Shown: positions 4,334 through 63,212 of the stretch, piece by piece
Position numbering within the stretch: the stretch's first letter is position 1
How the letters are laid out: each line of letters opens with the position of its first letter
NCBI GenBank assembly: GCA_038040175.1
Contig: JBBPIT010000009.1
Span: forward strand, 6,931 to 70,930
DNA length: 64,000 bases
Reading direction: 5' to 3'
Origin: Pseudomonadota bacterium
GTDB lineage: Bacteria > Pseudomonadota > Gammaproteobacteria > Burkholderiales > JACQAP01
Notes under the pieces: model-generated
What the model was told of the DNA's origin: nothing
Database searches by the model: none
Seen by the model: only the letters and a program-made list of their open reading frames with translations
Made by a program: the position numbers and the translations under genes

Positions 4334-4334
4334 A

Positions 4335-4482
4335 GGCGTGAGGCGAGAGGCGTGAGGCGAGAGGCGTGAGGCGAGAGGCGTAAGAGCAGGGCTTAGTGGC
4401 TTACTTTCTCGTGTTTACCCTTCACCCTTCACTCATTCCCCCTTCACTGCCCTTGTCACCCTTCACTCCTTCACCCTTCACG
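4335..4482. repeat. Two-armed heptamer-repeat element: (GGCGTGAGGCGAGA)x3 plus a degenerate copy, about 30-bp spacer, then CCTTCAC-type array
   Basis: Left arm 4335-4390, right arm 4417-4482 (tttacccttcacccttcactcattcccccttcactgcccttgtcacccttcactccttcacccttcacg). It fills the whole spacer between the stop of the FAD oxidase gene and the start of the arsC-like gene. Confidence 0.9.
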
Positions 4483-13198: not shown

Positions 13199-14440
13199 AT
13201 GGCGCATATGCCGCAACAGACCGAGGACAGGATGAATCGCCCCGAAAAGCTTCCCCGCAACGCCAGTCCGCACATCGCCTCGCGCATGGCCGGCATCGAG
13301 CCGTTCCACGTGATGGCACTCATCGCGCGGGCAAGGGAGCTGGAGGCGCAGGGGCGGAGCATCTCGAACATGGTGGTGGGTGAGCCCGATGCACCCACCC
13401 CGCCGTTGATCGCAGAGGCCGGCGTCCGCGCGATCCAGGCCGGCCGGATCGGCTATACCCAGTCGCTGGGCATCACCGAGTTGAGGGACGCGATCTCGGA
13501 GTGGTACCGCACGCGCTACGGTGTCGAAGTGCCGCGCTCTCGGATCGCGGTGACCACCGGCTCTTCGGGCGCGCTGCTGCTGACGATGGGTGCGCTTCTT
13601 TCGCCCGGAGACCGGGTGCTGATGACCGATCCCGGCTATCCGTGCAACCGGCATTTCGTGCGCGCAATGGAGGGCGATCCGGTCGGCGTCGCAGTGGATG
13701 CTTCGACCGCATACCAACTCACCGCCAAATTGGTGGAGAAGCACTGGACGCCGAAAACGGCGGCGGTGCTGATCGCTTCGCCGTCGAACCCGACCGGCAC
13801 ACTGATCGCTCACGATGAGCTCGAGCGCATTCACGCCGTGGTGCGCGCGCGTGGCGGGGTCCTGATCGTGGATGAGATCTACCATGGCCTGACGTATGGA
13901 CAGCGCGACCGCAGTGCGCTCGAGTTCGCCGATGACGTCTTCATCATCAACAGCTTTTCCAAGTATTTCGGTATGACCGGCTGGCGTCTGGGGTGGATGG
14001 TGGTGCCGCAGGAATTCATGCCGGCGGTGGACAAGCTGGCGCAGAACCTTTTCATCTCTTCCTCGGAATTGGCGCAGAAGGCGGCGCTCGCCGCATTCCA
14101 TCCCGATACCACCGCACTGCTGGAACAGCGCCGCGACGCCTTCCGCGCGCAGCGCGATTTCCTGGTGCCGGAACTGCGCAGCCTGGGCTTCGACATCCCG
14201 GTGATGCCGGAGGGTGCGTTCTACATCTATGCGAACTGCGAACGGCTCACGTCCGACAGCTATCAGTTTTGCTGGGACCTGCTGGAGAAAGCCGGCGTGG
14301 CGATCGCGCCGGGAATCGACTTCGGCGGCCATCGGGCGAAGCAGCACGTGCGTTTCTCGTATCCGAAGCCCATCCCCGTCCTGCGGGAGGGAGTGGAACG
14401 GTTGCGCAAGTATCTGGGCGAATTGACGACGCAACCGTGA
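13199..14440 (+). CDS. PLP-dependent aminotransferase, class I/II (aspartate aminotransferase-like)
   Basis: 413 aa with ISNMVVGEPDAPTP, YTQSLGITELRDAISEWY, SPSNPTGT and SFSKYFGMTGWRLGW (PLP lysine motif). The start could be a downstream Met. Confidence 0.85.
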   Translation: MAHMPQQTEDRMNRPEKLPRNASPHIASRMAGIEPFHVMALIARARELEAQGRSISNMVVGEPDAPTPPLIAEAGVRAIQAGRIGYTQSLGITELRDAISEWYRTRYGVEVPRSRIAVTTGSSGALLLTMGALLSPGDRVLMTDPGYPCNRHFVRAMEGDPVGVAVDASTAYQLTAKLVEKHWTPKTAAVLIASPSNPTGTLIAHDELERIHAVVRARGGVLIVDEIYHGLTYGQRDRSALEFADDVFIINSFSKYFGMTGWRLGWMVVPQEFMPAVDKLAQNLFISSSELAQKAALAAFHPDTTALLEQRRDAFRAQRDFLVPELRSLGFDIPVMPEGAFYIYANCERLTSDSYQFCWDLLEKAGVAIAPGIDFGGHRAKQHVRFSYPKPIPVLREGVERLRKYLGELTTQP

Positions 14441-14643
14441 AGGGGGAATGCGTGAAGGGTGAAGGGTAAAGGCGTAAAGCCGCTCGAAAATAGCGAGCAT
14501 CCCGAGGATTTTTCAAGGATACGTTATTGCTCATGCATTGCTTTCATCTGATCGGAGACTCACTCACCATGCTTTTGCATGGCCGATCTCTCCACTTGAC
14601 CACCGTCTTGCACCCTTCACCCTTCACCCTTCACTCATTCACG
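14436..14643. repeat. Two-armed heptamer-repeat element (GTGAAGG arm ... CCTTCAC arm)
   Basis: Left arm cgtgaagggggaatgcgtgaagggtgaagggtaaaggcgtaaag (14436-14479) contains the TGA stop of the aminotransferase. Right arm cacccttcacccttcacccttcactcattcacg (14611-14643) ends 5 nt before the ATG at 14649. Confidence 0.9.
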
Positions 14644-14648
14644 AATTT

Positions 14649-15515
14649 ATGACTTTCATGCCCGGCATGCAGCGGCAAACCGTGCCCGCCAACGGCGTGC
14701 GCATCAACGCGTGGGTCGGCGGCAAGGGTGAACCGGTGGTGCTGCTCCACGGTTATCCGCAGACCGGACAGATGTGGCGCAAAATCGTACCCAGCCTGCT
14801 CGATCAGTTCACCGTGGTGTGCCCCGACTTGCGCGGGTACGGCGACTCCGACAAGCCGCGTGACGGTTACGACAAGCGCAGCATGGCGAAAGACATCAGC
14901 GAGGTGATGTCCGTGCTAGGATTTGAAAGCTATGGGCTGGTCGGACACGACCGCGGCGCGCGGGTGGCGCACCGGTTGGCGATGGATTACCCGGACGAAG
15001 TGAGAAACCTCACCGTCCTCGATATCGTGCCCACGCACACCGTGTTCCGGGACACCGGCAAGGAACTCGCCGCCGCGTACTGGCACTGGTTCTTCTTCCA
15101 GGTGCCGGATCTGCCCGAGATCATGATTGCCAACAGCGCCGAGCCCTTCCTGCGGCACATGTTCCGGGCGTTGTGCTTTCGCCAGGACACGATCGAGGAG
15201 CCGATGTTCCAGGAGTACCTGCGCGCCTTCAGGCTGCCCGGGACGATCCGCGCAGGACTCGAGGACTATCGCGCGGCGGCGACCGTGGACATTGCCGACG
15301 ACGAACGCGACCTGGGGAAAAAGCTTGCCTGCCCGGTTCTGGCGATCTGGGGCGAGTACGGCAAGATGCACACCCTGTTCGACGTGTTGGGCACCTGGAA
15401 GGAGAAGGCCGCCAACGTGCGCGGCCACCCGGTGCAGTGCGGCCATTTCATTCCCGAAGAAGCGCCGGACGAGTTGTTGCGCGACCTTATTCCCTTCCTT
15501 TTGGAAGCATCCTAG
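14649..15515 (+). CDS. Alpha/beta hydrolase (haloacetate dehalogenase / epoxide hydrolase-like subfamily)
   Basis: ORF 14538..15515, trimmed to MTFMPGMQ because the upstream part is translated repeat. VVLLHGYPQTGQMWRKIVPSL...CPDLRGYGDSDKP...LVGHDRGARVAHR; the C-terminus contains GHFIPEEAPDEL. Confidence 0.85.
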   Translation: MTFMPGMQRQTVPANGVRINAWVGGKGEPVVLLHGYPQTGQMWRKIVPSLLDQFTVVCPDLRGYGDSDKPRDGYDKRSMAKDISEVMSVLGFESYGLVGHDRGARVAHRLAMDYPDEVRNLTVLDIVPTHTVFRDTGKELAAAYWHWFFFQVPDLPEIMIANSAEPFLRHMFRALCFRQDTIEEPMFQEYLRAFRLPGTIRAGLEDYRAAATVDIADDERDLGKKLACPVLAIWGEYGKMHTLFDVLGTWKEKAANVRGHPVQCGHFIPEEAPDELLRDLIPFLLEAS

Positions 15516-16454: not shown

Positions 16455-16469
16455 CTTCAATAATTTCTT

Positions 16470-16651
16470 AACACGAAGGAACACGAAGGGAAAACAAAAT
16501 CACACGAAGGAAAAACTGATAACCGGTCTGGCGCGCAAAGCGTCATCAATTTCCCCAGCAGAGATCGCGTATCAATTGACTCCCTTATTGTCTTCGTTAC
16601 TGCATCTCCTTCGTAATCCTTTCTTGCCTTTCCTTCGTGTTCCTTCGTGTT
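16470..16651. repeat. 182-bp MITE-like element with 20-bp perfect terminal inverted repeats made of ACACGAAGG units
   Basis: aacacgaaggaacacgaagg (16470-16489) is the exact reverse complement of ccttcgtgttccttcgtgtt (16632-16651). Extra cacgaagg/ccttcgt copies lie inside, and the interior is AT-richer. Confidence 0.9.
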
Positions 16652-16674
16652 GAGCGCGTTTCAAGGTTCCTTCA

Positions 16675-19000: not shown

Positions 19001-19035
19001 GGCCGGCCGCGTGCAAGATGGAGCGACCGTAAGAA

Positions 19036-19074
19036 CGGTGAAGGCGTGAAGGGTGAATGAGTGAAGGGGTGACG
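19036..19074. repeat. Single-armed GTGAAGG-type heptamer array
   Basis: cggtgaaggcgtgaagggtgaatgagtgaaggggtgacg, five GTGA units, 36 nt after the epoxide hydrolase stop. No CCTTCAC partner arm is nearby. Confidence 0.85.
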
Positions 19075-19097: not shown

Positions 19098-19772
19098 TTA
19101 ATCCCCGAACCCTCGACGAAGCCCCGCGCATGCGGGGCTTTCTGTCGGGGGCGGGGCGATGACTGATGCATAGCCGGCGCGTTCCAGTTCGCCCAGGTGC
19201 GCGAGATCTTCCGGGAGGTCCACATCGAATGCGAGCCCCGCACTTTCTACGGTTACGCATTGCACGCCGAGCTGCCGCACGTGCTCAAGATGGCGCACGA
19301 AGCTTCCCGGCCCGAAGGAAAAAGCGAATTCCAGCGACGGTTCCAGGCACAGGCCATTGGTCCCTTGCCGAGCCCGGTCCGGCGCGATGCCGACGCTGTG
19401 AGCCGACCCGGCGTCTGCGAGGCGTCGCAAGTCCTCCGCTTCCAACAGTGGAAGATCGCACGGGACTACCAGCATGTGCGACGCGCCCAGACGCCGGACT
19501 GCGAGTTGTGCTTGCCGCAACGCGCCGTTCAACCCGACGCACGCGCGTTCCTCGAGCACCTGCGCACCGAACTCGGCAGCGCGTGTGCGCGTTTCGCTGC
19601 ACCCGCTGACCAGCAGGGTCCGCTCCAGACCAGGAAATTGTGCGGCTCGCTCGAGTGTGCGCAAGAGCAGTCTTTCCAGGAACGCGCGGCGCCGCATGGG
19701 GTCGAGTGCCGGCGCCAGCCGGCTTTTGCCGTCGCGCAGGGACTTCATCGGCACGACCAGCCAGACACTCAT
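19098..19772 (-). CDS. cofC: 2-phospho-L-lactate (or PEP/3PG) guanylyltransferase, F420 biosynthesis
   Basis: 224 aa. MSVWLVVPMKSLRDGKSRL...GLNGALRQA...LVVPCDLPLL is the CofC/FbiD pattern. Its ATG overlaps the cofD stop (ATGA). Confidence 0.75.
   Translation of the reverse strand: MSVWLVVPMKSLRDGKSRLAPALDPMRRRAFLERLLLRTLERAAQFPGLERTLLVSGCSETRTRAAEFGAQVLEERACVGLNGALRQAQLAVRRLGASHMLVVPCDLPLLEAEDLRRLADAGSAHSVGIAPDRARQGTNGLCLEPSLEFAFSFGPGSFVRHLEHVRQLGVQCVTVESAGLAFDVDLPEDLAHLGELERAGYASVIAPPPTESPACAGLRRGFGD
19118..19141 (+). terminator. GC-rich stem-loop downstream of the epoxide hydrolase gene
   Basis: GAAGCCCCGC-gcat-GCGGGGCTT followed by tctgtc. It lies inside the last codons of the convergent cofC ORF, so its role is uncertain. 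Confidence 0.45.
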
Positions 19773-29684: not shown

Positions 29685-29930
29685 ATGAAGACAACCGTAG
29701 ATATTGCTGACCCATTGCTCGACGAGGCGAAAAGAGTCGCAAACCGCGACGGTACGACTGTCAAGGCGCTGCTGGAGCAGGGGCTGAGACAGGTGCTGTC
29801 GGAGCGCAAGACCGCCGGCGCATTTCGCCTGCGCAAAGCGACATTCCGTGGGCGCGGACTGCAGTCCGGCGTTGCACATCTGTCCTGGGACCGAATTCGC
29901 GATCTTGCCTACGAGGGGCGAGGCGGATGA
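29685..29930 (+). CDS. vapB: Type II antitoxin, VapB family
   Basis: Trimmed to MKTTVDIADPLLDEAKRVANRDGTTVKALLEQGLRQVL. It overlaps the downstream PIN gene by 4 nt. Confidence 0.8.
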   Translation: MKTTVDIADPLLDEAKRVANRDGTTVKALLEQGLRQVLSERKTAGAFRLRKATFRGRGLQSGVAHLSWDRIRDLAYEGRGG

Positions 29931-39806: not shown

Positions 39807-39981
39807 AGACCGTGACGGACGTGACGGCGTAACGTCGTGACGCAGCCATGATGCGGTGCAGCGGCGGATGGATCTCCGTCATCCGCCACGAGCCACAGGC
39901 TTGCTGAATCCGTATGCGATCCGTAACCGGCGCGGGGGTATCTTGGGCTCGAATGCGGCGGCTGGCGGGAAAGGCCAGACC

Positions 39982-40549: not shown

Positions 40550-41257
40550 ATGCAACCGTCAATCCGCCGGTTTGTACCGGCCTTTCTCGCATTCCTAACA
40601 ATGTGTGCTGCGGTTGGCGTTCAGGTCCGGGACGCCAGTGCCGCCGATCCGCTGCAGGCAGATCCTACTCATCACAAGCTCGAGTTCGAGAATCCGCATT
40701 TCCGGATCGACCGAGGATTCTTCGGGCCGGGCGAAAGCGCGGCCGATTTCTTCGACGCTGAAGGCGTCGTGATCGTTGCACTGACGCCGATGCGCATAAG
40801 ACTGCACCTGCCCGACGGAAAATCTGTCGATCCACCACCGCACCCCGCAGGCGCCGCCTTCTGGGCGCCCCCGGGCAAAATTCGCCCAGAGAATCTATTG
40901 GATCAACGGATCGAGTTCGTGATCGTCATACCAAGAGGCGCTAACGGAGCATCAAAGCAGATGGGCGCCGACGCTCTCGCGGTTGACCCGGAACACTGGA
41001 AAGTCGAAGTCGATAACGAAGCGGTTCGGGCTTTGCGCTATCGAGGCGATCCGCGCGTGAAGGGAGTGCTGCACGGACACGCCGCGCATGTCGTGGTTTT
41101 TCTCACCAGCGCCAAAACGCTGATCGACCAGCCCGGTGGCAAGACGTCCATCTCCGTGCGAAAAAGGGGAGACGCAATCAGCGTGCCGGCCGGCGAGCAC
41201 GCGCCGGAGAACCTGCTCGACGAACCGGTGGAGGTGATCCTCGTCGAGCGAAAGTAG
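40550..41257 (+). CDS. Secreted protein with two tandem cupin-like repeats
   Basis: 235 aa. Signal ...LTMCAAVGVQVRDASA. Repeat 1 is DPTHHKLEFENPHFRI...GKIRPENLLDQRIEFVIVIPR. Repeat 2 is DPEHWKVEVDNEAVRA...VLHGHAAHVVVFL...GEHAPENLLDEPVEVILVERK. Confidence 0.6.
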   Translation: MQPSIRRFVPAFLAFLTMCAAVGVQVRDASAADPLQADPTHHKLEFENPHFRIDRGFFGPGESAADFFDAEGVVIVALTPMRIRLHLPDGKSVDPPPHPAGAAFWAPPGKIRPENLLDQRIEFVIVIPRGANGASKQMGADALAVDPEHWKVEVDNEAVRALRYRGDPRVKGVLHGHAAHVVVFLTSAKTLIDQPGGKTSISVRKRGDAISVPAGEHAPENLLDEPVEVILVERK

Positions 41258-41292
41258 TGAGACGGTGAGACGTGAAGAGTGAAGGGTGAATA
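41257..41292. repeat. Single-armed heptamer array (GTGAGAC GGTGAGAC GTGAAGA GTGAAGG GTGAATA)
   Basis: It starts at the last base of the TAG stop of the cupin-like gene and ends 26 nt before the next start. Confidence 0.85.
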
Positions 41293-48649: not shown

Positions 48650-48688
48650 ACGGCCTGCCCGGATAAGCCGGTGCTAGAATTCGACAGG

Positions 48689-48716
48689 CGGGGCCGTTCC
48701 GGCCCCGTCCTTTTTT
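48689..48716 (+). terminator. Rho-independent terminator
   Basis: CGGGGCCG-ttc-CGGCCCCG followed by TCCTTTTTT. Confidence 0.8.
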
Positions 48717-48731
48717 ACCCCGGGACAAGAA

Positions 48732-49211
48732 ATGAGCGACTCCTCCGATATCAATACGCTGCGCCGCATCCTCAAGCAGTACAAGACCATTGCCGTGGTC
48801 GGCCTTTCGGCCAACTGGTACCGGCCCAGTTCCTTCGCCGCCAAATACATGCAGGCGCACGGCTACCGCGTCATCCCGGTGAACCCCATGTACAAGGAGG
48901 TCCTGGGTGAGAAGTGCTACGCCTCGCTTAAGGACATTCCCGATAAAGTCGACATCGTGGATTGCTTCCGCAAAAGCGAAGACATCGAACCGATCGCGGA
49001 CGAGGCCATCGCCATCGGCGCCAAGGTATTGTGGATGCAGATCGGCGTGATGAACGAAATGGCGGCGGAGAAGGCGCGCAAGGCGGGGCTGGAAGTGGTG
49101 CAGGACCGCTGCGTCAAGATCGAACACGGGCGTTTGTTCGGTGGGCTGAACTGGGTGGGCGTCAACACCAAGATCATCTCCGCCAAGCGGCCTCAGTGGC
49201 TACCATATTGA
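48732..49211 (+). CDS. CoA-binding domain protein (YccU/YneT-like)
   Basis: 159 aa with ILKQYKTIAVVGLSANWYRPSSFAAKYMQAHGYRVIPVNP and VDIVDCFRKSE. Confidence 0.85.
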   Translation: MSDSSDINTLRRILKQYKTIAVVGLSANWYRPSSFAAKYMQAHGYRVIPVNPMYKEVLGEKCYASLKDIPDKVDIVDCFRKSEDIEPIADEAIAIGAKVLWMQIGVMNEMAAEKARKAGLEVVQDRCVKIEHGRLFGGLNWVGVNTKIISAKRPQWLPY

Positions 49212-49214
49212 GGC

Positions 49215-49383
49215 GGTGAACGGTAAATGGTGAATGGTGAACGGTAAGCGGTAAACGGCAAAAGCAAGAACAAATACCCGTGCACTGAATCGCCTTTCAC
49301 CTTTCACCCTTCACCCTTCACCCTTCACCCTTCACCCTTCACCTTTCACCCTTCACCCTTCACCCTTCACCCTTCACCCTTCA
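49215..49383. repeat. Two-armed heptamer-repeat element: 7 x GGTRAAN, 29-bp spacer, 13 x CC(C/T)TTCA
   Basis: Hand-parsed. The left arm 49215-49263 reads ggtgaac ggtaaat ggtgaat ggtgaac ggtaagc ggtaaac ggcaaaa. The right arm 49293-49383 has 13 contiguous heptamers (3 cctttca, 10 cccttca). It begins 3 nt after the CoA-binding gene stop and ends 10 nt before the metY ATG. Confidence 0.95.
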
Positions 49384-49393
49384 CGGCATTCAC

Positions 49394-50680
49394 ATGGCGG
49401 ATAGAGAATTCGGATTCGGCACCTTGTGCCTGCACGCGGGACAGATCCCGGACGCGGCCACCGGTTCGCGCGCGGTGCCGATCTACCAGACCACTTCGTT
49501 CGTGTTCGACTCGGCCGATCACGCGGCGAGCCTGTTCAACCTGCAGACCTTCGGCAACGTCTATTCGCGGATCTCGAATCCGACGGTGGCGGTGTTCGAG
49601 GAGCGCATGGCGGCACTGGAAGGCGGCCGTGCGGCGCTGGCCGCGTCGTCCGGCCAGGCGGCGCAGATGTGCGCTCTGCTCACCATCCTGCGCGAAGGCG
49701 ACGAAATCGTCTCGGCGAGCACGCTCTACGGCGGCACCTATTCGCAGTTCGACGTGACCTTCCGTCAGTTCGGAATCAACACCGTGTTCGTGAACCCGGA
49801 CGACCCGGAGAATTTCCGCAAGGCGCTTACCCCGAGAACGCGCGTCCTCTACGCGGAAACCATGGGCAACCCGCAGATCAACGTGCTCGACATCGAGGCG
49901 GTGGCGAAGATCGCCAGGGAAGCGGGTGTGCTGCTGGTCGTCGACAATACCTTTGCCTCGCCGTACCTGTGCCAGCCAATTAGGTTCGGCGCCGACGTCG
50001 TCATCCATTCGGCGACCAAGTTCATTGGCGGCCACGGCACCACCATGGGCGGCGTGGTGGTCGAATCCGGCAAGTTCCCATGGGGCAACGGCAAGTTCCC
50101 GATGATGACCGAGCCCTCGCGCGGCTATCACGGCGTGATCTTCCACGAGACCTTCGGCGACTTCGGCTACACCATGAAGTGCCGCATGGAAACCATGCGC
50201 ACCCTCGGGCCGGCGTTATCGCCGTTCAACGCCTGGATGCTGCTGCAGGGATTGGAGACTCTGCACGTGCGTATCGAGCGCCACGTCGCCAACGCGGTAG
50301 CGGTTGCCAAGTTCCTGGAGAACCATCCGCGGGTTTCCTGGGTGCACTATCCGGGATTGCCGAGCAGCAAATACCACGCGCTGGCGCGCAAGTATCTGCC
50401 CAAGGGCAGCGGCTCGATCATGACCTTCGGCATCAAGGGCGGCCTCGAAGCGGGCGTGAAGTTCATCGAGGCGCTGCAGTTCTGCTCGCACCTCGCCAAC
50501 GTCGGTGATGCCAAGACACTGGTGATTCATCCTGCGTCGACAACGCACCGGCAACTGTCGGAAGAGGAGCAGATCACCGCGGGTGTGGGTCCCGACATGA
50601 TCCGGCTTTCGATCGGCATCGAGGACGTCAACGACATTCTCTGGGACATCGACCAGGCGCTCGCCCAGTCGAAGACCTGA
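49394..50680 (+). CDS. metY: O-acetylhomoserine sulfhydrylase / aminocarboxypropyltransferase
   Basis: 428 aa with FGTLCLHAGQ, PIYQTTSF, NVYSRISNPT, ATKFIGGHGT and ANVGDAKTLVIHPASTTH. Confidence 0.9.
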   Translation: MADREFGFGTLCLHAGQIPDAATGSRAVPIYQTTSFVFDSADHAASLFNLQTFGNVYSRISNPTVAVFEERMAALEGGRAALAASSGQAAQMCALLTILREGDEIVSASTLYGGTYSQFDVTFRQFGINTVFVNPDDPENFRKALTPRTRVLYAETMGNPQINVLDIEAVAKIAREAGVLLVVDNTFASPYLCQPIRFGADVVIHSATKFIGGHGTTMGGVVVESGKFPWGNGKFPMMTEPSRGYHGVIFHETFGDFGYTMKCRMETMRTLGPALSPFNAWMLLQGLETLHVRIERHVANAVAVAKFLENHPRVSWVHYPGLPSSKYHALARKYLPKGSGSIMTFGIKGGLEAGVKFIEALQFCSHLANVGDAKTLVIHPASTTHRQLSEEEQITAGVGPDMIRLSIGIEDVNDILWDIDQALAQSKT

Positions 50681-50699
50681 CAGTCCTTAAATCGAAGGG

Positions 50700-50899
50700 C
50701 TCACCACGAAGGCACGAAGAACACGAAGAAATGCAAAAAGAGATCGCATTCAGATCTAGCATTCTCTGTGAATATTTGTGTTACTCGTATTTCGCCGGCG
50801 ATGTTTCTTTGTTGGCTTCGGAGTGACCGGGTGGCTGGCTCGGAGCAAAAACACTTCTCGCATCGTCTTTCTTCGTGTTCTTCGTGCCTTCGTGGTGAG
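50700..50899. repeat. 200-bp MITE-like element with perfect 32-bp terminal inverted repeats built of CACGAAG units
   Basis: ctcaccacgaaggcacgaagaacacgaagaaa (50700-50731) is the exact reverse complement of tttcttcgtgttcttcgtgccttcgtggtgag (50868-50899). The interior is AT-richer. Confidence 0.9.
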
Positions 50900-50956
50900 A
50901 CTTTCGGTTCTCCGTTGCGCCTTTGCGTTGAGGTTTATGGGTTCTGAGGGGCACGC

Positions 50957-52132
50957 ATGAAAGGCGTGGTGTGGCCATTGATCGTAACCATCGCCATCCA
51001 GGCGCTGGTGTCGATGGCGGTGTTCGCGCCGCCGGTATTCGCTCCGGCCGCACACGATGACATCGGATTCCCCGCGAGCTGGGTCGGGATCGTCACTGCC
51101 CTGACATTCGCCGCAGCCACTTGCGGGGCGCTCTTTTCCGGAGGGGTCATCGCACGGGTTGGCGCGCTGCGCACGAGCCAGTTCTCGCTGTTGCTGTGCG
51201 GCAGCGGTATCGCGTTGATGGCGAGTTCCAACGCCGGGCTGGTCGCGCTCGGGGCGCTGGTGATGGGCCTTGGGTACGGGCCAGTCACGCCGTCCAGCTC
51301 GGCGATCCTCGCAGACCGCACTCCCGAGCGTATCCGCGGCTTCATCTTCTCGCTGAAGCAGACCGGCGTGCCGATCGGCGGGACGCTTGCCGGAGCGATC
51401 GTGCCCACCCTGATCGTCGCTTTCGGCTGGAGGATATCGGCGCTGTCGGTGGGTCTCGCGTGTGTCGCGCTGGCCGCGGCGATCCAGCCGTACCGGGCCG
51501 TGGTGGATCTCGCGCAGCATTTCGATCGTCCGAAAAAGCCCGCAAGCCTGCTCGAGCCGCTGCGCCTGGTGCTCGCCCATCCGCGCCTGCGCGAGATGGC
51601 TTTCGCGTCCTGCACCTATTCCGGAATGCAGGCCTGCCTCAGCACCTTCCTAGTCGTCTATCTGACCCAGCGAATCGGATTTACCGTGCCAGTGGCCGGA
51701 GCGGCGCTGGCGACCGCGATGACGGCAGGCATCATCGGTCGTATTTCGTGGGGAGTCGTGGCGGACAACTGGGTGAAACCGCGGGCTCTGCTCGGCATTC
51801 TCGGCGTGACGATGTCGGTGGGAGCGGCGCTCACCGCGACGTTCACCGGCAGGTGGCCGCTCGCCGCCATTTTTGCGGTGAGTTTCGCTTACGGCGCGAC
51901 CGCGATCGGATGGAACGGGGTGTATCTCTCGGAAGTCGCTCGCATCGCACCGGCCGGCAAGGCCGGCGCCGCGACCGGGGCTTCGCTGGCGATGACTTAC
52001 GTCGGCGTCGTGGCTCTGCCGATGCTGTTCTGGGTGATCGTTACGCTTTCGGACAGCTATGCGACTGCGTTCGTCGCGGTCGGTTCGCTGACCCTGTGGC
52101 GGGGCGTGTTGTTGCTGAGGCCTACTGCTTGA
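50957..52132 (+). CDS. MFS transporter
   Basis: 391 aa with about 12 hydrophobic segments and a LADRTPERIRG loop motif. Confidence 0.8.
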   Translation: MKGVVWPLIVTIAIQALVSMAVFAPPVFAPAAHDDIGFPASWVGIVTALTFAAATCGALFSGGVIARVGALRTSQFSLLLCGSGIALMASSNAGLVALGALVMGLGYGPVTPSSSAILADRTPERIRGFIFSLKQTGVPIGGTLAGAIVPTLIVAFGWRISALSVGLACVALAAAIQPYRAVVDLAQHFDRPKKPASLLEPLRLVLAHPRLREMAFASCTYSGMQACLSTFLVVYLTQRIGFTVPVAGAALATAMTAGIIGRISWGVVADNWVKPRALLGILGVTMSVGAALTATFTGRWPLAAIFAVSFAYGATAIGWNGVYLSEVARIAPAGKAGAATGASLAMTYVGVVALPMLFWVIVTLSDSYATAFVAVGSLTLWRGVLLLRPTA

Positions 52133-52661: not shown

Positions 52662-53543
52662 TCAGACGGCGTTTCCTTGAAGAAAGGCCTCGATGGCGGC
52701 GGCGAATCGTTTGGGTTGGTCGTGGTGCATCATGTGGCCGGCGTCGGCGATGGATTCTTCATGCAGCGAGCGATAACAGGAGCGGTAGCGGTCCAGCATC
52801 GACTTGTCGCCCTTCATCCACTTCATCATCCATTCGCCGTCTCCCCACAGCCAGAGCACCGGCGCGGTGATGCGCCGCCAGCAGGCCATCGCCTCCTCGA
52901 TGCGGTAGAGCACCGGATTCACCATTTTGTGGCAGGGATCGGCGCGCAGACGGATGTTGCCGTCGGGCATCTGCTCGGCCCAGTGCGGCGCGAGGAATGC
53001 GGCGCGTTCGTCGGTGATGCGCGGATTGTTGGTCTTGAGCCGGTGAATGACTTCTGCGAACGACGAGTAGGGGCGCAACGTCGGCGGCTTGCGGCATTCG
53101 TCCAGCCACTGGGCGTAGCGTTCCGGTGCCTTTTCCGGCTTGGTCGGCGGCAGACCGAAGCCTTCCGCCAGCACCAGCTTCCCGACGCGTTCCGGGCGGA
53201 TGCCCGCGTAAAGGTTGGCGACATTCCCGCCCATGCTGTGACCGACCAGACTTGCCGGGACTTCCGGCGAGAAATGCGACAGCAGCGCGTCGAGGTCGGC
53301 GATGTAATCCGGAAACCAGTAACTGTCGTTGGTCCACTCCGACAATCCGAACCCGCGCCAGTCCGGCGCGATCACGAACCAATCGTGCTTGAGCGCATCC
53401 ACTGCGAATTGGAACGACGCCGACACGTCCATCCAGCCGTGCAGAAAGAAAATTTTGGTTGCATCCGGATTGCCCCAGGTGCGCACGTGGTAGCGCAGGC
53501 CGCGGATGTCGAGAAACTGCGATTGGCTGACTTTCATAGTCAA
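52662..53543 (-). CDS. Alpha/beta hydrolase
   Basis: 293 aa with IFFLHGWMDVSASF and LVGHSMGGNVA (GxSxG). The TTG at 53543 or the ATG at 53537 could be the start. Confidence 0.8.
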   Translation of the reverse strand: MTMKVSQSQFLDIRGLRYHVRTWGNPDATKIFFLHGWMDVSASFQFAVDALKHDWFVIAPDWRGFGLSEWTNDSYWFPDYIADLDALLSHFSPEVPASLVGHSMGGNVANLYAGIRPERVGKLVLAEGFGLPPTKPEKAPERYAQWLDECRKPPTLRPYSSFAEVIHRLKTNNPRITDERAAFLAPHWAEQMPDGNIRLRADPCHKMVNPVLYRIEEAMACWRRITAPVLWLWGDGEWMMKWMKGDKSMLDRYRSCYRSLHEESIADAGHMMHHDQPKRFAAAIEAFLQGNAV

Positions 53544-53549
53544 ACACTT

Positions 53550-53697
53550 ACCGCAGAGGACGCGGAGTACGCTGAGGAAAAACTGAATGCGAGATGCAAA
53601 CCTGGGGAGTAAAACACGAAATTGTCAGAGTCTCTTTGTGACATTTTCCGATTCTTTGAGAAATTGATTTGCGATACTCCTCCGCGTCCTCTGCGGT
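53550..53697. repeat. 148-bp element with 18-bp perfect terminal inverted repeats
   Basis: accgcagaggacgcggag (53550-53567) pairs with ctccgcgtcctctgcggt (53680-53697). The interior is AT-richer. It fills the spacer between two minus-strand genes. Confidence 0.9.
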
Positions 53698-53709
53698 GAG
53701 CGCTTATCG

Positions 53710-59241: not shown

Positions 59242-61890
59242 TTACTTTACCCGCATGCCCGGCTGCGCGCCATCGTCGGGCGAGAGCAGGAAAATGCCCG
59301 GCCCGTCGCCGCTGGCGGCCAGTACCATGCCCTGGGATTCCCCGAAGCGCATCTTGCGCGGCTGCAGGTTGGCGACCATCACCGTAAGCCGTCCGACCAG
59401 CTTCGCCGGGTCATATGCCGACTTGATGCCGGCGAACACCTGGCGGGTTTCGTTGCCGAGATCGAGCTGCAGTTTGAGCAGCTTGTCGGCGCCTTCCACG
59501 TGCTCGGCACTGACGATGCGCGCGACGCGCAGCTCGACTTTATTGAAATCATCGATAGTGATAAGCCCCTCTCCCTCGGGGAGAGGGGTCTGGGGTGAGG
59601 GAGACGTCGGGGTGGAGGTCATTTTGTTCACCATGTTCCATATCGACTCGAGCACCGAGTCGGTTTGCGAGAGCACATCGTTATTCCAGAACCGCAACAC
59701 TTCGATTCGAAGTGCCGCGAGCGCTTGTGTTCGGGAATCGTCGTACGAGCGTGCCGTTTGATGTTGGCCACCATCCAGTTCGATGGCGAGTTTCAGCTCG
59801 TGGCTGTAGAAGTCGAGGACGTATCGATGTCCACTGAATTCCACGGGATGTTGCCGGCGAAACTTCGCGCCGGCAAGCCTTCGATCGCGCAGCAAAAACC
59901 AGACTAGTTGCTCGGCGTCTGTTTGGACGGCGCGCAACTTGCGCGCGAATTCCAGCAGATCAGGTGGGACGGGCGGTTTTTTCTTGAAAAGGCTTTTTTT
60001 CCCCTCACCCCCCGCTCCCTCACCCCCCCGCCCCTCTCCCGGAGGTAGAGGGGAGCTGGCCGGTTGCAGGCTTTCCTTGTTGGCTTCGACCAGCGCGGTG
60101 ATCTGTTTGGGGTCGATCCTCATCATCAAATGCGAATATTCCTGAACGCGATGATTCTCCAAGAGTCTGGACGCGTCCTTCCATTCAAGATCCCCGTCCC
60201 GAATAAACTGCTCGGCTGAGGATGCAAGTGTTGGCAGTACTGGCTTCAAATAAATGGTAAGCAGCCGAAAGAGATTGATAGTGACGGTGCAGACTTCGTG
60301 AAGATCCGAAGTTTTCTGTGCGTCTTTTGCAAGTTCCCAGGGTCGATTCAGATCAAAATACTTATTTGCGAGATCGGCTAAGAACATAACTTCCCTTATC
60401 GCACGGCCGAACTCGCGCAACTCATATAGTGTGGCTATCCGTGCCGCATCAACCATTGCGACAGACAATAATCTCGCGGGGTCTATTGGTAACTCGCCTT
60501 CCGAGACTAACCTCAGAAACGCATCACGCTCGAATTCGTCAACCGACTCATCTCCAGGACTAAAGTCAAACAACCCCATCGTCCTGATCGAGTTTGAGTA
60601 CGCAGTCACTTCGGCTGAGTAGTGCAGCGAACCAATCTCGTTGTTGAACTTGCTTCTTAGAAAGGATGCAGCTCTGCTTGCGATGTTGACGTACTTGCCG
60701 ATCAGATCGCTGTTTACCCGCGCGACGAAGTCCTCGAGGTTGAGGTCGATGTCCTCCATGCTCGCGTTGAGCTTCGCCGCGTAGTAGTAGCGCAGCCACT
60801 CGGGATTCAGCCCCTGCTTGAGGTAGCTCTCGGCGGTGATGAAGGTGCCGCGGGACTTGGACATCTTCTGTCCGTCCACCGTGAGGAAGCCGTGGGCGAA
60901 CACCTTGGTCGGCGTGCGGTAGCCTGCGAATTCCAGCATTGCCGGCCAGAACAGGGCATGGAAATAGAGGATGTCCTTGCCGATGAAGTGGACCATCTCG
61001 GTATTGCCGCCCGGGCGCAGGAAGGCGTCCCTGTCGATGGTCTTGCCCGCCGCTTTCTGTTTGGCGACGTAGTTGCCGAAGCTGCCGAAGTATCCCACCG
61101 GCGCATCCAGCCAGACATAAAAGAACTTCTGGTTGTTGGTGCCCGGGATCGGAAAGCCGAAGTAGGGGGCGTCGCGGGAAATGTCCCAGTCGGCCAGCTT
61201 GTTATCGCCAGGCTCGCCCAGCCACTCTTTCATCTTGTTCGCCGCTTCCGGCTGGAGGCGGTCGCCGGTCTGGGTGAAGCGGCGCAGGAAATCCTCGCAT
61301 AGTTTGTCGGAAAGCCTGAAGAAATGGTGCTCGGAGGCCTTGCGTTCCGGCCTGGCGCCTGAAACCGCCGAGTAAGGATTGATGAGGTCGGTGGGCGAAT
61401 ATGTGGTGCCACAGACTTCGCAAGAGTCGCCGTACTGGTCCTTCGAGTGGCAGTTCGGGCACTCGCCCTTGATGTATCGGTCCGGCAGGAACATCTGCTT
61501 GACCGGGTCGTAGAACTGCTCGACCGACCGTCTGGCGATCAGGTTCTTCTTGTCCAGCTGGCGGTAGATGTCCTCGCAGAAAGCCTGGTTCTCCGGGGAA
61601 TTCGTGGTGTAGTAGTTGTCGAAGGCCACATGGAAGCCGGCGAAGTCGCGGGTGTGCTCGCCGTACACGCGGGCGATCAGTTGCTCCGGGGCGATGCCTT
61701 CCTTGTCGGCGCGCAGCATGATCGGCGTGCCGTGGGTGTCGTCGGCGCAGACGTAATAGACCTCAGTGTCGGCTTGCATTCTCTGGAAGCGCACCCAGAT
61801 ATCGGTCTGGATGTATTCCACGAGGTGGCCGAGGTGGATGCTGCCGTTGGCGTACGGCAGCGCCGAGGTGACGAGGATCCTGCGCGACAT
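59242..61890 (-). CDS. metG: Methionine--tRNA ligase carrying an in-frame DUF559 insertion (882 aa)
   Basis: [28 protein letters not shown] contains the HIGH motif. The Zn knuckle is [25 protein letters not shown] is present. The anticodon-binding domain contains [21 protein letters not shown]. The C-terminal Trbp111-like domain runs [17 protein letters not shown]...[13 protein letters not shown]. There are 166 extra codons between the last two domains. Confidence 0.95.
59563..60060 (-). mobile_element. 498-bp cassette bounded by terminal inverted repeats, encoding a DUF559 (Vsr-like endonuclease fold) domain, inserted in frame in metG
   Basis: In the sense (minus-strand) orientation, the 5' end is ccctctacctccgggagagggg-cggg-ggggtgagggag-cggggggtgagggg. 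The 3' end is ctccctcacccc-aga-cccctctccccgagggagagggg. That gives imperfect inverted repeats of about 25 nt, each with a self-complementary hairpin. The interior encodes [63 protein letters not shown]...[13 protein letters not shown]. Calling it mobile is inference. Confidence 0.7.
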
Positions 61891-62000: not shown

Positions 62001-63089
62001 GTGGCAATCACCGAAGAGCAGGTCAGATCAGCCTTGCAGGAACTCACCGATCCGGTGACCGGGAAGGACTACGTCTCCGGCAAGGAAGCCCGCAACATCA
62101 AGGTCGAGGGCAACGACGTCTCTCTCGACATCCTGCTCGGCTACCCGGCCAAAAGCGTGATCGACGTCGTCCGGCGAGATGTTATTGGCAAGCTCAAGAC
62201 CATCCCCGGCGTGGGGAATGTCAGCGCCAACGTCCAGGTCAAGATCATCGCCCACGCTGTGCGGCCGGGCGTGAAGCTGATGCCCGGCGTCAAGAACGTG
62301 ATCGCCGTGGCGTCCGGCAAAGGCGGGGTGGGCAAATCCACCACTGCGGTAAACCTGGCGCTGGCGCTCGCCGCCGAAGGCGCCCAGGTCGGGTTGCTGG
62401 ACGCCGACATCTACGGCCCCTCCCAGCAGATGATGATGGGGCTGTCCGGCCGGCCGGAGTCCGCTGACGGAAAGACCATCGAGCCGAAGGTGAAATACGG
62501 CGTGCAGGCGATGTCGATCGGATTGCTGATCGACGTGGACACGCCGATGGTCTGGCGTGGTCCGATGGTGACCCAGGCGCTGGAACAGTTGCTGCGAGAC
62601 ACCCAGTGGAAGGATCTGGACTATATGGTGGTGGACCTGCCTCCCGGGACCGGCGACATTCAGCTCACGCTGTCGCAGAAGGTCCCGGTTACCGGTGCCG
62701 TAATCGTCACCACGCCGCAGGACATTGCACTGATCGATGCCCGCAAAGGCCTCAAGATGTTCGAGAAGGTAGGCGTGCCGATCCTGGGACTGGTGGAGAA
62801 CATGAGCGTCCACGTCTGCTCCAAGTGCGGACACGAGGAGCACATTTTCGGCGAGGGCGGGGCGGCGGCCATGAGCAAGGACTACGGCGTGGAGGTACTT
62901 GGCTCGCTGCCGCTCGACATCAAAATCCGCGAACAGGCGGACTCGGGCAAGCCGACGGTGGTCGCCGAACCGGACAGCCGCTCAGCGCAGATCTACAAGG
63001 AAATCGCCCGCAAGGTGGCGGCCAGGATCTCGGAACTGTCGAAGGACCACAGCGCAGCGTTTCCGAAGATCGTTATCCAGAATACGTGA
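62001..63089 (+). CDS. apbC: Fe-S cluster carrier ATPase (Mrp/ApbC/NBP35 family)
   Basis: GTG start inside ORF 61926..63089. N-terminal MIP18-like domain ITEEQVRSALQELTDPVTGKDYV. Deviant Walker A motif VASGKGGVGKSTTAVNLA. CxxC motif SVHVCSKCGHEEHIFG. Confidence 0.9.
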   Translation: MAITEEQVRSALQELTDPVTGKDYVSGKEARNIKVEGNDVSLDILLGYPAKSVIDVVRRDVIGKLKTIPGVGNVSANVQVKIIAHAVRPGVKLMPGVKNVIAVASGKGGVGKSTTAVNLALALAAEGAQVGLLDADIYGPSQQMMMGLSGRPESADGKTIEPKVKYGVQAMSIGLLIDVDTPMVWRGPMVTQALEQLLRDTQWKDLDYMVVDLPPGTGDIQLTLSQKVPVTGAVIVTTPQDIALIDARKGLKMFEKVGVPILGLVENMSVHVCSKCGHEEHIFGEGGAAAMSKDYGVEVLGSLPLDIKIREQADSGKPTVVAEPDSRSAQIYKEIARKVAARISELSKDHSAAFPKIVIQNT

Positions 63090-63212
63090 GGCGAGAGACG
63101 TGAGGCGAGCGGCGAGAGCAAGATACTCAGTGCGGTCAGCGTCTGCAGCTCGCGCGCGCCTCGTGCTGCGTTTTTCACCCTTCACCCCTCACTTCTCACC
63201 CCTCACGAGCGA
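63085..63212. repeat. Two-armed heptamer-repeat element (CGTGAGGCGAGAGA-type arm ... CYTCAC-type arm)
   Basis: The left arm cgtgaggcgagagacgtgaggcgagcggcgagag includes the apbC TGA stop and shares its unit with the 4335 locus. The right arm tttttcacccttcacccctcacttctcacccctcacgagc ends just before the dcd ATG. Confidence 0.9.

Follow-up and report, generated by a model that had tools for sequence, protein, structure and literature searches.

In a 64,000-nucleotide stretch of a soil Burkholderiales genome (GenBank assembly GCA_038040175.1, contig JBBPIT010000009.1, positions 6,931 to 70,930 of the forward strand; the whole stretch is called the window below), the O-acetylhomoserine sulfhydrylase gene metY is preceded by thirteen tandem CCCTTCA-type heptamers where a Shine-Dalgarno (SD) sequence would stand. 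These heptamers probably form the pyrimidine-rich arm, on the downstream side, of a palindromic intergenic element built from paired arrays, which is tolerated or mildly useful and not a metY-specific regulator. On our best reading, such elements are an abundant, lineage-specific and slippage-prone interspersed repeat of an uncultured soil Burkholderiales clade. A preliminary description of this DNA, made from the letters alone, had seen in the array a replacement for the ribosome-binding site whose copy number could set hairpin stability and metY translation. The replacement, the hairpin potential and the slippage-prone character hold, but a metY-specific switch tuned by copy number is unlikely.

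Direct reading and a script parse agree on exactly 13 contiguous units at 49293-49383 (10 CCCTTCA and 3 CCTTTCA), in the order CCTTTCA, CCTTTCA, five CCCTTCA, CCTTTCA, five CCCTTCA; the count is that of the metagenome-assembled genome (MAG) contig as assembled. Tandem Repeats Finder (TRF) reports the tract as 12.7 copies with 96% matches and a score of 164. A three-unit probe allowing up to two mismatches gave 11 overlapping matches at the metY array and 2 at one other element in the window, where 100 dinucleotide-preserving shuffles gave an expectation of 0.00, and the array is far from chance. After an initial CCTTTCA, the arm consists of a 42-bp block (CCTTTCA plus five CCCTTCA) present twice in succession, which points to a recent block duplication, and its 91 nt contain 54% C and 0% G. 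The inverted left array reported earlier is also there, with seven GGTRAAN units (GGTGAAC, GGTAAAT, GGTGAAT, GGTGAAC, GGTAAGC, GGTAAAC and GGCAAAA) at 49215-49263, beginning 3 nt past the TGA stop (49209-49211) of the upstream CoA_binding_2 gene. As a separate observation, the complement of the right arm, (GGGTGAA)n on the minus strand of 49293-49383, holds two runs of five G3 tracts with 4-nt gaps, so that the metY template strand carries a canonical G-quadruplex-type motif; G3 runs are missing from most other units of the family, so the motif is not general to it.

Only 10 nt (CGGCATTCAC) separate the array from the metY ATG at 49394, and the earlier claim that this gap lacks an SD stands: the best duplex of the 16S anti-SD tail with positions -22 to -3 of metY reaches only -1.7 kcal/mol, effectively no SD. 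The start codon is backed by homology. The downstream open reading frame (ORF) is an O-acetylhomoserine sulfhydrylase (PF01053, E=3e-141; protein MEK6209681.1, on the 90-kb MAG contig). Among its 120 best homologues, 115 have a length of 428 aa and a single one falls short of 100% query coverage; the closest matches at 100% identity. Homologue lengths and full query coverage thus identify ATG 49394 as the true start of metY.

Is the loss of an SD peculiar to this strain? Scanning one genome per species yielded 80 related metY loci (L numbers denote individual loci), all from MAGs and mostly from soil. At homology-fixed metY starts of orthologues, the mean SD duplex energy is -2.1 kcal/mol when a pyrimidine array abuts the start versus -4.6 kcal/mol without one (p=8e-5), as expected of arrays that stand in place of an SD, and several array-free relatives show an SD-like purine run before metY. 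The CoA-binding gene precedes metY at 47 of 77 related loci. Paired arrays occupy the spacer between the two genes at most loci with 88-96% MetY identity (L005-L035), and are patchy among more distant relatives and absent from many. Their units differ from relative to relative: GGTGAAC/CCGTTCA, GTGAGGG/CCTCACC, AGGCACG, CGTGAAT/ATTCACG and GGTGATT/AATCACC, and further (CCAATTA)8, (GCCCCTA)n, GCCAAG/CTTGGC and CACAAAG/CTTTGTG. The spacer measures 5-84 nt in array-free relatives versus 109-233 nt in array-bearing ones. Because it is short without arrays, the junction looks like an ancestral operon that was later occupied by the element, which would therefore have been inserted into, or have grown within, an intercistronic spacer. 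Neither a sigma-70-like promoter nor an intrinsic terminator was predicted at 49211-49394, and no T-run follows the right arm.

The end of the leader, CCCTTCACGGCATTCAC-ATG, is retained in L007, L011, L021 and L092, and near-identical CACAGCATTCAC occurs in L010; G-poor leaders persist before metY across the clade. L010 (96% MetY identity) is instructive, having a stop-to-ATG spacer of only 26 nt, CACCCTTCACCCTTCACAGCATTCAC, with two CCCTTCA units, no left arm and no SD. This shows that metY can dispense with both the hairpin and the SD.

The array is not specific to metY. The preliminary description had proposed a comparison with related strains; what it took for a feature of the metY leader is one member of a genome-wide and clade-wide family of paired arrays beside unrelated genes. 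Within the window, TRF and direct reading find about 10 such elements beside unrelated housekeeping genes (FAD oxidase, ArsC-like, aminotransferase, alpha/beta hydrolase, Sel1, epoxide hydrolase, MFS, Mrp/ApbC and dcd; 16 window proteins were scanned against Pfam). Their common layout is a purine-rich tandem array on or just past a stop codon, a spacer, and a pyrimidine-rich array near the next start. The pyrimidine arms that end at 14643 and 63206, 5-9 nt before the ATGs at 14649 and 63216, resemble the metY arrangement, and here too an SD is absent next to the heptamer repeats. A second form, class B, repeats an 8-10-nt unit about three times in each arm, for instance CACGAAGG/CCTTCGTG and CGCAGAGGA/TCCTCTGCG, around spacers of about 90-150 nt that are unique to each element, with outer ends TCACC/GGTGA or GAACC/GGTTC.

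A census with TRF over the window and the 80 related metY loci, in which adjacent arrays no more than 350 bp apart were counted as pairs, gave 45 pairs with the purine-rich array followed by the pyrimidine-rich one and 0 in the opposite order, from at least 20 non-orthologous sites. Arm complementarity ranged from 0.57 to 1.0 across array pairs. The arrangement reads alike on both strands; in mRNA sense the rule is that purine-rich arrays follow stops and pyrimidine-rich arrays precede starts. Elements almost fill their intergenic gaps, and all purine- and pyrimidine-type arrays counted in the context census are intergenic, with flanking-gene orientations of ++ (25), -- (7), +- (7) and -+ (3). 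The divergent context is rare, accounting for 3 of 42 elements versus 108 of 521 background gaps. The polarity possibly reflects common descent, avoidance of SD-like repeats before starts, or avoidance of exposed C-rich Rho-loading sites; for the last of these one might speculate that a purine arm transcribed first would sequester the pyrimidine arm as it emerges.

Would the two arms form a hairpin, and would its stability depend on the number of heptamers? The left and right arrays can indeed pair into a long imperfect hairpin (z=-4.4 vs shuffles). In sense RNA of 49205-49400 the seven left units take part in the hairpin, with a predicted -54 kcal/mol. Antisense RNA reaches a far more stable -81 kcal/mol, because what are A-C mismatches in sense are G-U pairs there; single-stranded DNA gives only a weak hairpin (-25 kcal/mol). 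When minimum free energies (MFEs) were compared for 32 elements lying between co-directional genes, no bias towards the sense strand emerged (16/32, Wilcoxon p=0.87), so that palindromy is a two-strand or DNA-level property. Selection on a sense mRNA hairpin is thus unsupported, given the lack of asymmetry over these elements and the better antisense fold at metY. In a simulated series of unit numbers, accessibility of the start was lowest with 2-4 units (opening energy 14-17 kcal/mol), and from about 8 units upward, flat to 20, the MFE stayed at -85.8 kcal/mol and the opening energy at about 10 kcal/mol. Units beyond about 8 are predicted to contribute only G-free RNA with no stable structure alone. 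Hairpin stability is set by the 7-unit left arm, and therefore slippage near 13 units is not predicted to tune the hairpin, contrary to what the preliminary description had suggested.

That the tract changes length over evolutionary time is supported by orthologous right-arm tracts of about 40 to 104 nt and by the duplicated 42-bp block in the window. The GGTGAAC-type cassettes that could be aligned (window, L009, L012, L029, L032, L014, L023 and L017) have a conserved left arm and spacer, both conserved jointly with the window in L009, L012, L029, L032, L014 and L023, and a right arm in which both unit and length vary. Ahead of the ATG the G-poor tract is about 40 nt long in L029, 48 in L009, 83 in L014, 97 in L023 and 104 in the window, and right arms among orthologous cassettes span roughly 6 to 15 heptamer lengths; these length differences were seen between species only. 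The homogenised CCCTTCA unit occurs only in the window, and in orthologues the tracts are shorter or more degenerate and built of CCGTTCA or CCATTCA units. Homogeneous arrays exist elsewhere with other units: (CCAATTA)x8 lies upstream of metY in L025, and in L030 at least 11 copies of (GCCCCTA) run to the contig end before metY (positions 1-92 of CAMDKM010000004.1, a MAG whose label, Bordetella parapertussis, looks doubtful). These represent independent recent expansions with different units.

Turnover extends to whole cassettes. Cassette types are scattered over a neighbour-joining tree of metY coding sequences, and the same types recur in separate lineages. The sister pairs L007/L092 and L008/L009 have near-identical flanks and a wholly unrelated left arm and spacer, with the last 40 or so nt before the ATG identical in the first pair and similar in the second. 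Identical flanks around unrelated cassettes in sisters argue for whole-cassette exchange between lineages, probably by homologous recombination, and contradict gradual divergence in situ as the sole source of unit diversity. The class-B element after metY varies as well: it is absent from L095 (2787-2836; a 96%-identical relative with a 48-nt spacer), and in L094 (1287-1518; a 97%-identical relative) the site corresponding to window 50680-50957 has another unit and another spacer, so that presence/absence and replacement are both polymorphic there. In L013 (5875-6232) a class-B element of the CGCAGAGG type is apparently duplicated whole, as arm, interior, arm, interior, arm.

The arrays also interrupt assemblies. 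All four same-strain Logan contigs found by exact-protein look-up end inside the array, the 97%-identical JGI contig (L094) breaks off there too, at the metY ATG, and the genome contigs of L011, L012, L018, L024, L030, L045 and L051 start less than 300 nt from the metY ATG. With short-read contigs ending in arrays, long homogeneous arrays are probably under-represented among assembled relatives. A metagenome scan with the junction pattern returned 9 loci and no spanning contig of the window's strain; only L089 and L092 among them are orthologues, both with other cassettes.

The coordinates of the metY junction and of the other family members in the window are collected in Table 1.

Table 1. 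The metY junction and further paired-array elements in the 64-kb window
Feature	Position	Strand	Basis or context
CoA_binding_2 protein gene	48732..49211	+	PF13380, E=5e-43; conserved operon partner of metY
Purine-rich left (5') arm, 7 heptamers GGTRAAN, last unit degenerate	49215..49263	+	direct reading, TRF, parse; pairs with right arm in predicted folds
Spacer, loop of the element	49264..49292	+	homologous only to the orthologous spacer (L009)
Pyrimidine-rich right (3') arm, 13 heptamers	49293..49383	+	direct reading, TRF, parse, shuffles
Last 10 nt of leader (CGGCATTCAC), no SD	49384..49393	+	direct reading and SD duplex energy
metY, O-acetylhomoserine sulfhydrylase, 428 aa	49394..50680	+	Pfam and homologue lengths
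Family member: (AGGCGWG)n 4334-4381 and (CCCTTCA-like)n 4417-4481	4334..4481	-	between FAD-oxidase gene and ArsC-family gene
Family member: (GTGAAGG)n 14436-14479; (CACCCTT)n 14611-14643	14436..14643	+	starts on aminotransferase TGA stop; ends 5 nt before alpha/beta-hydrolase ATG 14649
Class B: (AACACGAAGG)n ... (TTCCTTCGTG)n	16467..16654	+	after Sel1-repeat gene
Lone purine-rich arm, GTGAAGG-like	19033..19072	+	32 nt past epoxide-hydrolase gene stop
Short array (CGTGACGG) x3.9, single arm	39811..39842	+	49-nt spacer between co-directional genes
Lone purine-rich arm, GTGAGAC/GTGAAGR	41257..41290	+	abuts stop codon; downstream gene retains GAGGAGAG SD
Class B: 3x CACGAAGRA, 136-nt spacer, 3x TTCTTCGTG; outer ends TCACC/GGTGA	50690..50909	+	directly past metY stop; 42-nt arms, 93% complementary
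Class B: CCGCAGAGGACGCGGAG ... CTCCGCGTCCTCTGCGG	53542..53705	-	between two minus-strand genes
Family member: (GTGAGGCGAGAGRC)n 63087-63120; (TCACCCY)n 63175-63206	63087..63206	+	starts on Mrp/ApbC-like TGA stop; ends 9 nt before dcd ATG 63216

Several features of these elements deserve mention in their own right. The upstream stop codons at 14438-14440, 63087-63089 and 41255-41257 lie within or abut the first GTGA-type unit of the purine arm, and tandem GTGANNN heptamers present TGA in all three reading frames. The three class-B elements of the window have spacers of 110-140 nt; their purine arms hold SD-like GGAGG/GAAGG cores and their pyrimidine arms anti-SD-like CCTCC/CCTTC cores. Past the lone purine arm at 19033-19072 lies an intrinsic-terminator-like GC-rich hairpin (19103-19156; GCCCCGCGCATGCGGGGC then TTTCTGTC), and a conventional terminator may here take the place of a pyrimidine arm. 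The only pyrimidine-rich array found within coding sequence is a 15-nt tandem repeat (CCCCTCACCCCCCCG, 2.7 copies) at 60001-60040, which falls within a large ORF of the minus strand (59242-61890) and, with a period divisible by three, presumably encodes a repeated peptide. A 97-nt tRNA-Arg(TCG) called by ARAGORN at 29789-29885 is a probable false positive, lying inside an apparent antitoxin ORF (VapB-type by eye, MKTTVDIADPLLDEAKR...) and overlapping the start of the next, PIN/VapC-like ORF; Rfam found no tRNA there at gathering score.

How would metY be expressed across such a junction? We favour an account in which the element sits in an ancestrally tight junction between the CoA-binding gene and metY and has displaced the SD. 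The CCCTTCA tract would be a recent slipped-strand expansion, with duplication of the 42-bp block, of one right-arm unit variant. The region would be transcribed within a CoA-binding-gene/metY mRNA, and in that polycistronic message the 7-unit left arm is predicted to pair with any 7 of the 13 right-arm units, leaving about 40 nt of G-free RNA with no stable structure of its own. Two routes, alone or together, would then allow metY translation to begin without an SD. In one, 30S subunits and ribosomal protein S1 would load on the unstructured C/U-rich leader; recruitment of S1 by a pyrimidine-rich leader, raised in the preliminary description, is plausible, as a G-free, C/U-rich, single-stranded tract may serve as an S1 or standby site. 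In the other, termination at the upstream stop would be followed by reinitiation, the hairpin keeping stop and start close. Only 3 nt would part the stop from the stem, and about 10-18 nt the stem from the metY start, which would leave stop and start as close as in array-free ancestors. On either route, gain or loss of units around n=13 would be expected to be nearly neutral.

Several points weigh against this account. Co-transcription, the route of initiation and near-neutrality are all inferred, and the context statistics used gene calls from a crude in-house caller. Each locus has a spacer of its own, and to speak of an element is therefore not to say that a mobile unit has been demonstrated. 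The sense hairpin is predicted to be weaker than the antisense one, which would fit a DNA-level or neutral palindrome and would poorly fit a bridge between stop and start. From the other side, the strict purine-then-pyrimidine polarity, together with SD replacement at several genes, hints at some selected role.

The last two points bear on a less likely explanation, that the arrays are purely neutral or selfish by-products of elevated slippage and palindrome-templated repair in intergenic DNA, without any role, with metY wholly coupled to the upstream ORF. The lack of folding bias between strands, the unique spacers, the rapid turnover of units and cassettes between sister lineages, the presence/absence polymorphism of the downstream class-B element and the ability of L010 to cope with 26 nt and no hairpin are all what it would lead one to expect. 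However, slippage alone would hardly give a polarity of 45:0, or purine arms set tight on stops and pyrimidine arms by starts, and the clade-wide persistence of G-poor leaders before metY also speaks for something more. A contingency locus is unlikely; here frequent slippage of CCCTTCA would set MetY expression in a phase- or rheostat-variable manner, through the leader hairpin or the way that an enzyme such as RNase III processes it. In its favour, a near-perfect 7-bp microsatellite lies in the leader, with a complementary arm, 10 nt before the ATG, orthologue lengths differ, and its model, the (ATCTTTC)n 5'-untranslated region (5'-UTR) of Haemophilus influenzae hmw1A, provides an experimental precedent for a heptamer simple sequence repeat (SSR) whose hairpin with a purine arm is cut by RNase III (PMC12721329). 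Yet metY is a housekeeping biosynthetic gene of a free-living soil bacterium, the same architecture recurs beside many unrelated genes, and between 8 and 20 units neither the predicted hairpin energy nor the predicted accessibility of the start changes. In addition, SSRs with 5-11-nt units in large-genome non-pathogens were reportedly ascribed by Mrazek in 2007 to a general tendency to expand and not to a specific function. A dedicated role in methionine or homocysteine regulation is similarly unlikely, given the family membership beside unrelated genes and the lack of a riboswitch.

Could the heptamers instead be read by a protein? Tandem short units are typical of multi-site binding platforms, a GTGA/TCAC core recurs in many units, and a regulator was suggested for the TAACTGA repeats discussed below (PMC4679880), but arrays of DNA or RNA sites bound by a repeat-binding protein specific to the lineage, be it a nucleoid, an insulator or a post-transcriptional regulator, are very improbable here. 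The units vary widely within one genome (GTGAAGG, GGTGAAC, AGGCGAG, CACGAAGG, CGCAGAGG) and at one orthologous site (GCCAAG, CGTGAAT, GTGATTG, CCAATTA, GCCCCTA), and this diversity rules out a single sequence-specific reader. More improbable still is a Rho device, in which the G-free C-rich tract would be a rut-like site sequestered by the earlier purine arm, with unpaired excess units tying metY transcription to prompt translation through Rho-dependent attenuation or polarity. The composition of the right arm would suit it, and the universal purine-first order is what rut avoidance would predict from the established properties of Rho. Against it, only about 40-50 nt would be unpaired, which is short for Rho, and the right arms of many relatives are less C-rich (26-35% C).

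If the array is, as we favour, one arm of a widespread intergenic element, the consequence for metY is deflationary: the striking microsatellite is, most likely, no switch specific to methionine. The family of polar paired arrays across the clade is more interesting than the metY locus alone. Abundant soil bacteria tolerate or exploit long repeat-built hairpins right at operon junctions, and essential genes such as metY and dcd run without an SD. The invariant 45:0 polarity indicates a constraint, perhaps at transcription-translation coupling or in the mechanism that generates arrays. There is also a practical side, in that arrays systematically break short-read assemblies at gene boundaries, biasing MAG contiguity and start-codon annotation in the clade. 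If the elements prove functional, they would offer a natural system for SD-independent initiation and hairpin-bridged translational coupling.

To what known kind of repeat or regulatory RNA might these elements belong? Rfam at gathering score gave nothing in the whole window, and in E-value mode over 48650-51000 only far-sub-threshold long-hairpin models (plant miRNA precursors and an Hsp83 3'-UTR element) touched the two paired-array elements of that interval, on either strand. A methionine or S-adenosylmethionine riboswitch, or another known cis-regulatory RNA, is thus rejected for want of a match to any curated covariance model. Class-B spacers read by eye contain no conserved small ORF, the plasmid collection holds no similar DNA, and a full-text literature search for the unit strings retrieved only a coincidental primer. 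A classical miniature inverted-repeat transposable element (MITE) is rejected as well, since spacers match only orthologous sites and inspection of class-B flanks found no consistent target-site duplication. Repetitive extragenic palindromic (REP) sequences and the bacterial interspersed mosaic elements (BIMEs) built from them are abundant imperfect extragenic palindromes of Proteobacteria, found beyond the 3' ends of genes and within operons but seldom between divergently oriented genes; REPs have a conserved consensus of about 35 bp per genome, are linked to REP-associated tyrosine transposases (RAYTs) and are able to form mRNA hairpins. The paired arrays are similar in being numerous (about 10 per 64 kb), extragenic, imperfect stem-loop palindromes that avoid divergent gaps. 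They differ in that their arms are built of tandem 7-10-nt units around unique spacers, the consensus changes with the locus and none is shared; no transposase link was found for them, though no test for RAYT association was made.

Tandem heptamers as such have ample precedent. According to the summary in PMC4679880, heptanucleotides are the commonest class in the survey by Mrazek et al. (2007) of long simple sequence repeats whose units measure 5-11 nt (LSSR5-11), and Burkholderia genomes are rich in them. The metY array is likewise a heptamer microsatellite in a betaproteobacterial genome, with a likely origin in polymerase slippage, whereas the survey, as far as that summary conveys it, describes no inverted pairing, polarity, anchoring to stops and starts or SD replacement. 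Cyanobacterial short tandemly repeated repetitive (STRR) sequences and the four-heptamer elements of Geobacter metallireducens, for example GGGACCG x4 at 49 sites (PMC2700814), are also genome-wide, short, mostly non-coding tandem heptamer arrays, but those families have fixed consensus units, include some copies inside genes and are not polar inverted pairs bracketing spacers (PMC2700814). The closest parallel in position is the TAACTGA heptamer of marine Beggiatoaceae, where it replaces ribosome-binding sites genome-wide (MacGregor 2015, PMC4679880); it also occurs in some Cyanobacteria and Bacteroidetes, and recognition by S1, Csp or CsrA-type proteins has been proposed for it and is unproven (PMC4679880). 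There as here, tandem heptamers lie a few nt upstream of starts at the position of the ribosome-binding site, a canonical SD is rare or absent, and the repeats occur genome-wide beside functionally unrelated genes, including essential ones. Unlike the TAACTGA system, with its one conserved unit in unpaired sets of 2-6 copies, the units here (CCCTTCA, GGTGAAC, GTGAAGG, AGGCGAG, CACGAAGG and others) differ by locus and by relative, and the array forms half of a strictly polar inverted pair, in soil Burkholderiales.

The closest parallel in structure is the (ATCTTTC)n 5'-UTR of hmw1A and hmw2A in H. influenzae, where the SSR hairpin is processed by RNase III and expression is phase-variable (PMC12721329; PMC8262952). 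In both cases a pyrimidine-rich heptamer SSR in a leader (here predicted to be transcribed) is paired with a purine- or G-rich arm, a fixed number of repeats pairs (10 in hmw, 7 here), extra repeats leave the predicted hairpin unchanged (for hmw, PMC12721329), and short-read assemblies break at the repeat. In hmw, however, the SSR is the 5' arm and the G-rich arm is 3', an order reversed at metY, and the setting is a single phase-variable adhesin locus of a host-adapted pathogen, with 11-63 repeats varying within lineages, unlike the intercistronic spacer before a housekeeping gene that holds one of many elements here. The metY element lacks the unit of the TAACTGA repeats, the shared consensus of REPs, the shared interior of a MITE and any riboswitch or Rfam match, and it is not a member of any one of these kinds. 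We tentatively raise the possibility, which we consider the less probable outcome, of an undescribed class of interspersed element in uncultured soil Burkholderiales, with locus-specific 7-10-nt units, strict polarity on stop and start and about one copy per 6-8 kb, evolving by slippage, arm-to-arm homogenisation and cassette exchange. Such a class might replace SD-dependent initiation at many operon junctions by a structure-bridged or S1-dependent mode, its polarity perhaps being imposed by avoidance of exposed Rho-loading sites or spurious SDs.

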